DNA of 64,000 nt. It comes from Escherichia phage WPEC3. The position numbers and the translations under genes are program-made. Below, in pieces: positions 40,042 to 41,010 of this stretch (position 1 is the stretch's first letter; every line of letters begins with the position of its first letter). Location: the sequence record PV611058. One strand, written 5' to 3'. The notes under the pieces were generated by a model, which was given only the letters and a program-made list of their open reading frames with translations, ran no database searches and was not told the origin of the DNA.

Positions 40042-41010
40042 TCATTTGTGATAATGCATCTGCTTCAGATTTTGCACGGATACATGATAGATATAGTTCT
40101 CGTATATCGCCATCCAACGATGCTTGTTTCTCGTCATTGATAACAATAGAACGAATCTCAAAACGAACACCATAACTCATTCTGTTTGTCCAACAATTAG
40201 TTTTTCTTTAGTATTACTATTGTAACACCACATTAATTCTTCACCAACTGTTCTAAGTGAAACGCTGTTTACTTGTTCATACGTACTGTCACGTACTGCA
40301 ATGCATTGATTCATTGAATTCATTGGGGTGATTTGTACACCAGATTGTGGTGAAAGAGCAATAATTAAAAAGATTACTGAATTCATTAGATATTCCTTAG
40401 TGGTTAATCATCCATCTCTTCGAGATGTCTGTTCGCTTCTAATACTACGTATTCTACGCGAATGAATCATAACTGTCAAGGACTTTTAATATTGACGGGA
40501 TTTGAGGAAGGGATTTTTCTTCCCCCCGCACGGAGGGAAATTTGACGCTGATGGTATCAGAGCTATTGCATTGAAGATTACTCATAACGAGTGCGAAAGC
40601 GGGTCATCCTGTTTCTCTCTACTTCAGTTTCATATGACGGTCTACACTTTTAAACATAGTGTATCTTCATTAAGTATCTATGCAATCAAATACTTAATGT
40701 GAGTACTCAAATTTTGGACGCAACTTTCCTGTACAAAATTCGATAACTCTCCCTTAGATAATTCGTAAGGTGTTATCCTTATATGTCTATCGAGGAACCA
40801 CCAGCTATCCTAACGTGGTTCTTTATACAGCCGCATTGCCGTGAGGGGTTCAAACTATGCCCACATCTAACGGGTTTCTTTTGCTGTTCGCTACAATGAA
40901 AAGCTCATCTATCCTTTACATTTTCAAGTGAAGTAGGGGAAGATTGTCAGTACCAGTACTGTCATTGTGATTGTACATAGATCATTGTATCACCATTAAT
41001 AAATTTGTCC

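Follow-up and report, generated by a model that had tools for sequence, protein, structure and literature searches.

The window analysed here, a 64,000-nt stretch of DNA from Escherichia phage WPEC3 (PV611058), contains a gap of ~660 bp (40387-41047) for which the ORF listing offers no credible ORF, and the question raised by this locus is what such a gap might hold. It is flanked by two minus-strand ORFs, a 69-aa ORF (40177-40386) and a sigma factor (41048-42013). A preliminary description of the window had singled it out as an ORF-free stretch and as the longest non-coding gap of the minus block, and both statements hold: within this block (~16-64 kb), 40181-41047 is the largest stretch that minus-strand ORFs of 70 aa or more leave uncovered, the tRNA region coming second. 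The plus-strand 66-aa ORF at 40502-40702, considered spurious in the same description, does exist, and its coding is not conserved among 36 homologous copies of the stretch. The longest ORFs in these copies range from 31 to 84 aa and vary in strand, position and length, the indels between copies are not multiples of three and break the frames, and among the 36 copies there is no ORF conserved in both frame and position. With ORFs and frames varying in this way, nothing in the stretch has been conserved as a protein gene.

As far as sequence can tell, the gap is almost certainly an independent minus-strand gene for a large structured non-coding RNA. The terminator scan places the terminator of the upstream sigma-factor gene at 41011..41043 (stem 41043-41018, then a T-run), and the promoter scan places a promoter for the RNA directly after it at 40984..41011, with 16 nt between a -35-like GGGACA (41011-41006) and an extended -10, TGaTACAAT (40992-40984), from which transcription is predicted to start at ~40978. 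Of 64 distinct copies, 63 have the extended -10 (TGnTAnnnT) in this position, with a -35 that is mostly of the TGAAAC type; the promoter is thus of the TGAAACG 'divergent RpoD-like' class known from phage CBB (PMC5259590). From the predicted start to the second of two CGUCA boxes, and as delimited by nhmmer and alignments, the whole element is put at 40492..40978 (~487 nt), the length census of the copies giving 450-614 nt; the folded core tested by covariation is 40968-40565. About 26 of the 64 copies have a T-run of 5-9 between the first box and the hairpin P11 described below, and in those whose folds were inspected it follows a hairpin, making a good intrinsic terminator. The window copy has neither this T-run nor a canonical terminator, and its RNA may therefore be co-transcribed with the downstream genes. 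One subfamily has its promoter separated from the RNA by a terminator-like hairpin. Outside the RNA, the promoter scan finds a separate sigma-70 promoter (TTGACA-17-TAGAAT, 40451..40479, 11/12 consensus matches) predicted to serve the downstream 69-aa ORF (40386-40177), and sites of the form TTGACT-17-TAcnnT were read by eye 3' of the element in CBB and GAP32.

The case for an RNA is carried by covariation. We tested two domains comprising 73 base pairs in 36 diverged copies, with shuffles and slid pairings as controls: 93-97% of the pairs are maintained, compared to 75% in the shuffles and 29-46% in the slid controls, and compensatory changes occur in 62 of the 73, three pseudoknot-type pairings included. 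For the 33 pairs of the 3' domain the figures are 97.5% paired against 75% and 40-46%, with 29 pairs showing compensatory changes and none of 500 shuffles reaching the observed values on four of five measures; for the 40 pairs of the 5' domain they are 93% against 75% and 29-45%, with 33 compensatory pairs. The conjecture of an 'other structured RNA' in the preliminary description is strongly supported by these results. The assignment to the minus strand rests on internal G-U pairs, promoters and terminators. In the 3' domain, G-U exceeds A-C by 42:4, the 5' domain being neutral in this respect (27:27), and the pair 40617-40597 is G-U in 16, A-U in 14 and U-A in 4 sequences, a pattern that fixes the strand; the terminators of the copies, like the extended -10, are on the minus (RNA) strand. 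RNAalifold on the raw MAFFT alignment gave plausible structures on either strand and left the strand undecided, and single-sequence MFE z-scores (-1.8 and -2.7) were uninformative.

Over its two domains, the resulting fold comprises no fewer than 13 helices. Its three pairings of pseudoknot type are P1/S2, that of the P6 loop with a distant strand, and P8 crossing PK2, and the structure frames the invariant unpaired blocks GAUAGACAUAU, GAAACCCG, CGGCAAUGCGGC, CGACCGU and ACCCGC. All parts are on the minus strand. In the 5' domain, P1 (40968-40961 with 40900-40893, region 40893..40968), which comes from the covariation test, contains a variable hairpin P1a (~40961-40948) and a three-segment hairpin P1b (40936-40909, loop GAAAAUGU), and S2 pairs GCU 40904-40902 with AGC 40892-40890, bracketing the 3' strand of P1 and thereby making a pseudoknot; the first three helices of this domain (P1/P1b/S2 region) are 96%, 87% and 100% paired, with 8, 7 and 2 compensatory pairs. 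P2 (40887-40883 with 40831-40827, region 40827..40887) encloses the invariant AAAAGAAACCCG, the hairpin P2a and then CGGCAAUGCGGC. The outer stem of P2a is 40873-40870 with 40842-40839, and its GGG/CCC tip (40862-40860 with 40848-40846) closes an 11-nt loop, CAUAGUUUGAA. The two helices of the P2 region (helices 4-5) are 100% paired, with compensatory changes in four of the five P2 pairs and, as seen by eye in the alignment, a tip pair in P2a that covaries as G-C, U-A, C-G and A-U. Hairpin P3 (40821-40815 with 40801-40795; 92% paired, all seven pairs compensatory) is followed by CCUCGAUAGACAUAUAAGG, by its invariant alignment columns the most conserved block of the RNA, in which GAUAGAC is invariant in 36 of 36 copies and which leads into hairpin P4 (40781-40777 with 40770-40766; 82% paired, 4 compensatory pairs), block and hairpin together occupying 40766..40794. 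A linker with the conserved UAAGGGAG (40756-40749; linker and P5 region 40703..40765) then connects to the P5 module, AAUUUUG 40740-40734 with CAAAAUU 40716-40710 and loop UACAGGAAAGUUGCGUC, for which the pair counts give partial support; the alignments show it relocated to the P9 tip in some paralogs.

The 3' domain begins with hairpin P6 (40697-40690 with 40677-40670, eight of eight pairs compensatory), the loop of which provides the 5' strand of PK1 (40686-40680) for pairing with AUGCAAU (40565..40571) ~110 nt downstream; PK1 is 99.5% paired, with compensatory changes in all seven pairs. Between them lies a pseudoknotted 3' core (40572..40662), starting with a variable hairpin P7 (40662-40644), where P8 (40638-40634 with 40607-40603) crosses both PK2a (40626-40622 with 40576-40572) and PK2b (40619-40615 with 40599-40595), and hairpin P9 is formed by 40592-40590 with 40582-40580. 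Helices 3-6 of this domain, the 3' core, are 98-100% paired, with 14 of 18 pairs compensatory. The order of elements here is P8 5' strand, PK2a, PK2b, P8 3' strand, PK2b', P9, PK2a', with no P4-P6-like domain between the crossing helices as judged by eye; the group I order P3, P4-P6, P7, P3', P8, P7' does not, by the same judgement, seem to be reproduced. The 3' tail (40492..40561) consists of hairpin P10 (40560-40556 with 40552-40548), box 1 CGUCAA (40547-40542), the G-run hairpin P11 (40539-40532 with 40527-40520) and box 2 CGUCAA (40497-40492); essentially all copies have this hairpin and the two CGUCA boxes. Because the G-run hairpin and box 2 stay conserved 3' of the internal terminator in the terminator-bearing copies, they may function as DNA, or else only in transcripts that read through it. 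Two GC-rich stems pointed out in the preliminary description both fall inside this real structure, with a pairing that had been drawn wrongly: ggaag...cttcc overlaps the conserved G-run hairpin, and ccgcattgccgtgaggggttcaaactatgccc is the junction J2a/2 together with hairpin P2a.

Does this fold belong to any RNA already described? A cmscan of Rfam 15 (4227 models) on both strands of 39900-41300 at E<=10 returned only terminator look-alikes at 41006-41100, terminator-like sRNA models that fall on the sigma-gene terminator, and the whole-window scan at gathering scores returned six tRNAs only, which ARAGORN places at 53.5-58.5 kb. At the gap, the GOLLD, ROOL, HEARO (omega RNA), OLE and raiA models have no match, ARAGORN and Rfam find no tRNA, tmRNA, RNase P RNA or 6S RNA, and our literature search found no description of the element. 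An Infernal/Rfam search was the check proposed in the preliminary description, and no intron or other family was matched; to read the absence of a covariance-model hit as a refutation would wrongly dismiss the element, because its family is simply missing from Rfam. On these searches, the RNA would represent a new family of large RNAs that matches no curated one. We define it by its promoter (a TGAAAC-class -35 and an extended -10), its fold (a P1-P4 5' domain with the invariant GAUAGACAUAU, and a pseudoknotted 3' domain with P6/PK1 and P8/PK2) and its tail (CGUCAG box, G-run hairpin, CGUCAG box). None of these features is missing from the window copy. By-eye resemblances to group I R/S elements, RNase P CR-IV, C/D boxes and the 11-nt tetraloop receptor did not hold, and neither did an anti-Shine-Dalgarno pairing of UAAGGGAG.

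To our knowledge, few RNAs are at once large, intricately folded and endowed with conserved pseudoknots, and nearly all such classes we know of, namely ribosomal RNAs, RNase P, self-splicing introns and tmRNA, perform fundamental biochemistry; the unexplained exceptions, OLE, GOLLD, ROOL and raiA, are a recognised open problem. A close likeness is to GOLLD and ROOL, large 'ornate' RNAs borne mostly by phages and prophages, for which cryo-EM structures exist (PMC12286853). Like the element, they are of the ~500-800 nt class and come from phage-borne stand-alone genes, and they combine numerous covarying helices with pseudoknots and strongly conserved junctions; the tRNA cluster in the same genome region of the window may be counted as a further likeness. 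Unlike them, the element is hosted by jumbo myoviruses of Enterobacterales, in each genome of which 3-5 diverged paralogs occupy fixed positions far apart, and the GOLLD and ROOL models do not match it at E<=10. In PA5oct, a jumbo phage of the wider Rak2-related clade, RNA-seq detected the unannotated long non-coding RNAs ncRNA002 and ncRNA004, 450-620 nt in length and located in ORF-free gaps, and ncRNA002 reaches ~5% of phage reads (PMC7318152), which shows that abundant long non-coding RNAs are made by such phages. We considered ncRNA001 and ncRNA002 as possible homologs and rejected them, since neither nhmmer nor the covariance model found similarity in PA5oct 1-30 kb, where both are located. 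The conserved movable module, GUACAAUAUAG...CCAAAAUUUG, which some paralogs have between P4 and P6 and others at the P9 tip, recalls the naturally permuted non-coding RNAs (PMC10085705), a likeness that is architectural only and not functional.

All 61 of the 61 Rak2/121Q/GAP32/CBB-type records hold the element, with three copies per genome in Asteriusvirus (in the phage of the window at ~60, 196 and 307 kb) and five in Eneladusvirus. The copies are found at ~60, 196 and 307 kb of 375 kb in fEgEco12, at 90, 193 and 327 kb in 121Q, and at 25, 93, 175, 261 and 335 kb in fHe-Yen9-04, a roughly even spacing for which simulation of the minimum gap gives p values of 0.01-0.02 from related genomes, whose tests are not independent. 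CBB and GAP32 probably carry a fifth copy at around 175 kb. Paralogs are ~70% identical to one another and orthologs ~90%, and they have been retained at syntenic, fixed positions over long evolutionary time; between genera, ~70% DNA identity persists in the core beside flanking genes that are entirely unalignable, which puts the feature well outside chance. Each paralog group has its own flanking genes, neighbours cluster only within a paralog group, and no conserved neighbouring protein that might be an RNP partner is common to the paralog groups or to the bacterial islands considered below. Most copies share the orientation of both neighbours, with the next ORF following within tens of nt, and several are antisense or convergent to theirs (the 121Q 327-kb copy, 7t3, the L229 group and the Serratia copy). 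Another 38 loci come from metagenomes, many of them on contigs of 165-371 kb. A 15-mer scan of viral contigs gave mostly chance matches, a two-block pattern gave many among the matches listed, and a three-block pattern was clean. Seven metagenome pattern matches (L226, L245, L252, L256, L263, L266, L267) were missed by nhmmer, resemble ordinary coding DNA and were set aside as chance, and a match in a 'Streptomycetaceae' MAG (L207), also missed by nhmmer, was set aside as well. No second copy was found within the 64-kb window by blastn, nhmmer or the covariance model, a weak covariance-model match at 14449-14541 (E=0.74) being taken as chance, and a plasmid search found no copy of the element.

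Complete copies are also present in two bacterial islands, one in E. coli LR-29-1 together with candidate defence genes and one in Serratia. The 3'-domain model R1, built from 36 sequences including the window copy, scores them at 117.6 and 115.3 bits, respectively, compared to 103.6 bits for the window copy. The LR-29-1 copy (nhmmer E=2e-133) keeps the promoter, the terminator and every helix. The Serratia copy adjoins two ParB/RepB-like genes and a serine recombinase, the ParB-like proteins being absent from the phages of the clade. Both copies moved without any phage gene.

Our best overall explanation, to which we assign a probability of roughly 0.55, is that the gap is a structured RNA gene whose product is a stable trans-acting RNA working through its fold. 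By analogy, the pattern of conservation looks like that of ribozymes and high-affinity binders, in that junctions are invariant, helices covary, pseudoknots are present and a peripheral module can move. Host RNA polymerase would transcribe the RNA, using a promoter class that is specific to the phage and probably middle, and we infer that the RNA acts through its three-dimensional fold and is neither a messenger nor a plain antisense transcript. The stable RNA would then bind, scaffold or catalytically act in trans on a conserved partner, one shared perhaps by all enterobacterial hosts or by all phages of the clade, the paralogs might supply dosage or differently timed expression, and the promoter-plus-RNA copies in bacterial islands might be decoys or hijackers of this partner. 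As a specific mechanism, a trans-acting binder or ribozyme is a tentative proposal to which we give somewhat less than even odds. If the bacterial copies interfere with infection, they would represent a new RNA-based route of phage-host conflict. The family is a case favourable to experiment, since it occurs in cultivable E. coli phages (121Q, PBECO4, phAPEC6, fEgEco12 and others) with a defined promoter, just three copies to delete and more than 60 diverged sequences for structure modelling, and it offers natural 'experiments' in copies with and without a terminator, a relocated module and copies captured by bacteria. We note that fixed, roughly evenly spaced paralogs suit a position-dependent role in cis at least as well as one in trans.

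It is such a role that the main rival, in our estimate a rather unlikely one, would assign to the element. Let us assume that each copy is a replication origin with a primer RNA of the ColE1 RNA II or T4 oriF/oriG type. The middle-type promoter would then drive a ~500-nt structured transcript, its G-rich 3' hairpin and the A+T-rich DNA after it would promote a lasting R-loop from which leading-strand synthesis is primed, proteins would bind the CGTCAG boxes, and the island copies would get their island replicated by the phage replisome, or titrate it. ColE1 RNA II, at ~555 nt of comparable length, and the T4 oriF/oriG transcripts are likewise promoter-driven, structured and ~500 nt long, ending in a G-rich element beside A+T-rich DNA, and T4-type phages have several middle-promoter-dependent origins per genome. 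The dispersed, roughly even spacing of the copies and the syntenic positions of the paralogs fit such origins, as do the G6-run hairpin and the two sequence-conserved direct repeats of every copy, the ParB/RepB-like and recombinase neighbours of the Serratia copy, and the 80 nt 3' of box 2, which average 71% A+T compared to 65% for the whole window. In CBB, the promoter class lies mostly upstream of genes of the DNA-synthesis region (PMC5259590). However, in ~40% of the copies the T-run, a terminator in those inspected, lies upstream of the G-run hairpin and the A+T-rich DNA, so that a primer transcript should stop before reaching them, A+T is only modestly enriched, iteron arrays were not seen, and the cumulative GC skew has no inflection at 40.4-41.0 kb. 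R-loop origins are not known to need three pseudoknots or invariant junctions; the element has no homology to ColE1 RNA II or oriF/oriG, is far more intricately folded, and, unlike them, would terminate in many copies before the G-rich part, and neither an RNase H site nor an antisense regulator was identified in it.

A combination of the two ideas, marginally more doubtful still, is that a new class of large pseudoknotted RNA has a position-dependent role in replication, constituting an RNA-primed, evenly spaced multi-origin system. Asteriusvirus would have three such origins and Eneladusvirus five, as Mimasvirus probably would too, the fold would control primer or R-loop formation, and bacteria would have captured complete copies, in defence or mobile islands, as decoys or for amplification by an infecting phage. 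If the even spacing does reflect origin function, the family would reveal the replication origins of Rak2-like jumbo phages. An equally novel alternative is that the RNA may be a new ribozyme or a self-assembling RNA machine.

Improbable, in our view, is a cis-acting leader that modifies the polymerase or the downstream message, such as an HK022 put-like antitermination element, a large attenuator or a riboswitch, and that controls the long co-directional gene block after each copy. The prevailing co-orientation with neighbours and the short distance to the next ORF suit a leader, as do the position-specific retention of paralogs and the many copies without a terminator, the terminators of the others being passable by a modified polymerase. 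Against it, the 11/12-consensus promoter in the window separates the RNA from the next gene, as the similar sites seen by eye in CBB and GAP32 would; several copies are antisense or convergent to their neighbours, contrary to the co-orientation expected of put-like elements; the downstream genes are unrelated between paralogs; and the element entered bacterial islands unaccompanied by phage genes.

Very improbable is that there is no RNA function at all, the locus then grouping signals that work as DNA (promoters, terminators, sites bound by proteins) or being a small protein gene that has decayed or escaped recognition. Two promoters and a terminator are indeed present, as are a pair of conserved direct repeats, and annotators sometimes call small ORFs here. 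However, no ORF is conserved, and the compensatory double changes in 62 of 73 pairs, some ~110 nt apart, with strand-specific G-U pairs, refute DNA sites or coding sequence unless the alignments are artefactual.

The last alternative, a group I or group II intron or its remnant tied to the nearby HNH homing endonuclease, as the preliminary description had entertained, is effectively refuted: the element shares size, a pseudoknotted core and phage occurrence with group I introns, GIR1-type ribozymes and other phage introns, and at this one locus an HNH gene (39157-39951, PHROGs, E=3e-149) lies nearby, more than 430 bp away with two small ORFs between, but no intron model matches at E<=10 on either strand of 39900-41300, no copy has an ORF above 84 aa where group II introns usually encode a reverse transcriptase, and each copy, far from being a remnant within a split host gene, is an intact, universally conserved element with its own promoter between complete, unrelated flanking genes. 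The suggested HNH link is unsupported, the gene not adjoining the other copies and the related phages Turkey5 and JNE01 keeping the copy at this very locus with the HNH-side flank absent.

In dozens of GenBank records, the loci of the family are unannotated or carry spurious small ORFs.

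The 661-bp gap between the 69-aa ORF (40177-40386) and the sigma-factor gene (41048-42013), both on the minus strand like all genes around it, holds one member of what our analysis shows to be a family of independent, promoter-driven, highly structured RNA genes. The element, about 490 nt long, runs on the minus strand from a predicted start near 40978 to the second CGUCA box (40492). The family, universal in the Rak2/121Q-type jumbo-phage clade, consists of large pseudoknotted RNAs and is previously undescribed; our full-text literature search found no description of it. The preliminary description had picked out the gap as the longest of the minus-strand block and as lacking a credible ORF, and in both respects it was right: this is the block's largest ORF-free stretch and contains only short ORFs, none of them conserved, including the plus-strand 66-aa ORF, and a protein-coding gene can therefore be rejected. 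It under-rated, however, a feature that is real and important. Almost all GenBank records leave the gap without annotation. At element loci in records such as 7t3 (MK773491), Hallingskeid (PQ464590), WPEC5, JP4 and GAP32_503A, automatic annotation has filled the space with three or four very small ‘hypothetical protein’ ORFs, on one strand or the other, which are almost certainly spurious.

Over the 1.4-kb stretch searched (39900-41300), the window shares 99.7% identity with two Asteriusvirus-type jumbo myoviruses of the Rak2/121Q/PBECO4 group, the Escherichia phages fEgEco12 and Ecwhy_1. With the gap alone as blastn query, identity is 90-99% among Asteriusvirus phages, and it falls to about 70%, across roughly 450 nt, in members of other genera (CBB, GAP32, Serratia BF, Erwinia pEa_SNUABM phages, Yersinia fHe-Yen9-04, Salmonella Munch and 7t3, Klebsiella fENko-Kae01 and Xanthomonas XbC2), where the flanking genes fail to align and different genes border the element. 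Judged by these comparisons, the element is conserved far beyond its surroundings and forms a multi-copy family. Pattern scans and nhmmer profiles found several copies per genome: three in 121Q (about 90.5, 193 and 327 kb), three in fEgEco12, of the window's own lineage (about 60, 196 and 307 kb, the third being the single copy within the 64-kb window), five in fHe-Yen9-04 (about 25, 93, 175, 261 and 335 kb), five also in Serratia BF or closely related Erwinia pEa phages, and at least four each in CBB and GAP32, in which the copy pattern has a 163-kb hole, a hint that a fifth copy near 175 kb escaped detection. The element is present in 61 of 61 clade records of the phage collection, and metagenomes added 38 more copies, many on contigs of 165-371 kb. 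Neighbours are conserved only between copies of the same paralog group; no protein family travels with the element from group to group. The sigma-factor gene has a 33%-identical homolog in fHe-Yen9-04 (~335 kb), about 1.6 kb upstream of a different RNA paralog.

In the alignments, invariant blocks alternate with variable stems showing obvious compensatory changes. Helices were defined from this covariation and then tested on tool-made alignments of 36 copies, pairwise mostly less than 92% identical. In the 3' domain, the 33 pairs were 97.5% paired, versus 75.1% in column shuffles and 40-46% with slid partners; both sides had changed in 29 pairs (241 cells), and on four of five measures none of 500 shuffles reached the observed values. 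The 40 pairs of the 5' domain were 93.0% paired (75.0% in shuffles, 29-45% with slid partners), with double changes in 33. On this covariation, the element is a highly structured RNA. Its 5' helices are P1, P1a, P1b and S2, then P2 and P2a, P3, P4 and the P5 module; the P6 loop pairs with a strand ~110 nt downstream to form PK1, in which all seven pairs are compensatory and 99.5% paired; P7 and P8 follow, P8 crossing a PK2a/PK2b stem that bears hairpin P9; and the tail carries hairpin P10 and the G-run hairpin P11. The two strands of S2 lie on either side of P1's 3' strand; in geometric terms this would allow an H-type pseudoknot, with the deep groove of P1 spanned by one G, although P1 and S2 could instead be alternative conformers. 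Invariant unpaired stretches separate the helices, among them GAUAGACAUAU, GAAACCCG, CGGCAAUGCGGC, CGACCGU and ACCCGC. When copies of the L005, L214, L217, L220, L012, L208 and L213 types were compared with the window, a peripheral module, GUACAAUAUAG...CCAAAAUUUG (40703-40745), was found between P4 and P6 in most copies, inserted in the P9 tip in some paralogs and apparently in both places in a few; the L213-type paralogs are without an alignable P6. In large RNAs, relocation of this kind is a usual trait of modules that make tertiary contacts.

The minus strand is identified by the internal G-U pairs, which on the plus strand would give A-C mismatches: the pair 40617-40597 is G-U in 16 sequences, A-U in 14 and U-A in four, the ratio of G-U to A-C over the 3' domain is 42:4, and P11 is also rich in U-G pairs. 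Single-sequence folding energies did not discriminate between the strands of the element. In 63 of 64 distinct copies, an extended -10 (TGnTATAAT-like) stands correctly spaced upstream of P1 on the same strand, preceded mostly by a TGAAAC-type -35. The window's version (GGGACA-16-TGaTACAAT, 41011-40984, minus strand) comes directly after the sigma-gene terminator, which the preliminary description had proposed and which we locate at 41043-41018. By its motifs, the element promoter belongs to the ‘divergent RpoD-like’ class of CBB and GAP32, defined by a -35 TGAAACG plus a classic -10 and in CBB found mostly upstream of ORFs of the DNA-synthesis region (PMC5259590). In a paralog group that adjoins a DNA methyltransferase gene (L167, L104, L157, L092, L100 and L179/L211), a TGAAACG...TATAAT promoter is followed immediately by a GC-rich terminator-like hairpin with T6 and then by P1; this hairpin may act as an attenuator or protect the 5' end. 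At the 3' end, two CGUCA-type repeats, box 1 and box 2, flank P11. About 26 of the 64 copies have a run of 5-9 T between the first box (CGUCAG) and P11, placed after a hairpin in the inspected folds like an intrinsic terminator, with P11 and box 2 still conserved downstream; the window copy is without it. The pairing state of box 1 differs: some copies have it in P10 or a terminator stem, others leave it single-stranded.

The element also matches three bacterial chromosomes, of which two were found to hold a complete copy. That of E. coli LR-29-1 (L223 8646-9362, NZ_AP027515, ~3.479 Mb; nhmmer E=2e-133; 3'-domain model score 117.6 bits) retains both boxes, the G-run hairpin and the internal terminator as well as the promoter. 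It sits between ybaA and ffs in a 10.8-kb island, alongside genes that PADLOC lists as defence candidates (PDC-M45A/C, PDC-S16 and one resembling PDC-M01B), IS3, an integrase fragment and the gene of a small serine recombinase. E. coli EEC_W5 (NZ_CM130020 245356-245450) gave the same 95-nt BLAST hit, the match by which it is known. The intact copy of Serratia fonticola GTA-SR07 (L208 3677-4275, NZ_CP183218, ~4.244 Mb; 115.3 bits, 3'-domain model) has next to it, within the 8 kb of the locus read, two ParB/RepB-like genes and the gene of a large serine recombinase, and lies beside tilS and a tandemly duplicated rof. PLSDB plasmids contained no copy. Because none of the phage neighbour genes accompanies the bacterial copies, promoter plus RNA constitute a self-sufficient unit, and one that is useful, or at least tolerated, outside the phage.

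The conservation pattern is, by analogy, that of RNAs acting through a precise three-dimensional fold. The element's junctions are invariant and sit between covarying helices, it has three pseudoknots and one of its peripheral modules can relocate; these traits favour a trans-acting RNA, and we propose, with a probability of roughly 0.4, that the element is a stable RNA serving as a binder or scaffold of a conserved partner or acting on it as a catalyst. The partner would be conserved across hosts or across the phage clade, and the bacterial copies would act as decoys or hijackers. The main rival, a primer RNA for replication origins of the ColE1 RNA II or T4 oriF type, we consider unlikely. 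It would account for the roughly even spacing of copies in 121Q, fEgEco12 and fHe-Yen9-04 (a minimum gap this large has a simulated p of 0.011-0.020 in these three- and five-copy genomes, which share ancestry and are not independent tests), the retention of paralogs at particular positions, the class of promoter, the G-run hairpin with A+T-rich DNA behind it (71% vs 65%) and the ParB/RepB context in Serratia; however, many copies have terminators upstream of the G-run, the fold is elaborate and no GC-skew inflection is seen. Less probable still is an antiterminator or leader acting in cis. The flanking genes of most copies run in the same direction as the copy, as this would predict, but several copies are antisense or convergent, copies occur in bacteria, and a promoter intervenes before the next gene: a near-consensus sigma-70 promoter (TTGACA-17-TAGAAT, 40479-40451, minus strand, 11 of 12 matches), which comes after box 2 and A+T-rich sequence and separately serves the 69-aa ORF, with a hairpin, CATCTCGAAGAGATG (about 40425-40411), in the 5' UTR.

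An intron, like a stretch without RNA function, is effectively excluded. The preliminary description had raised an intron-like remnant tied to the nearby HNH endonuclease gene and suggested an Rfam search; the gene is indeed there (39157-39951, PHROGs E=3e-149), but the idea is wrong. No Rfam 15 family, in a set including group I and II introns, GOLLD, ROOL, HEARO, RNase P, tmRNA and 6S, matched, whether the whole window was scanned with gathering thresholds or the element region with a cutoff of E<=10, yet the element is a structured RNA; ARAGORN found nothing at the element. The HNH gene is absent beside other copies and at the same locus in phages Turkey5 (PQ471516) and JNE01 (OR670491). 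Since, against 39900-40179, these two align only from 40179 rightwards, the region of the HNH gene and a 75-aa ORF is variable, whereas neither the RNA element nor the sigma gene varies; the HNH gene would be consistent with a free-standing mobile endonuclease. In the related phage PA5oct, lncRNAs were defined by RNA-seq, and such phages make abundant long ncRNAs (PMC7318152); its ncRNA001 and ncRNA002 have no detectable relation to the element. Elsewhere in the window, six tRNA genes (Thr-TGT, Asn-GTT, Met-CAT and three Ser, with anticodons GCT, TGA and an unusual ACT with A34) cluster on the minus strand at 53520-58477, scattered across 5 kb with ORF-poor spacers that include a 796-bp gap at 57725-58520.
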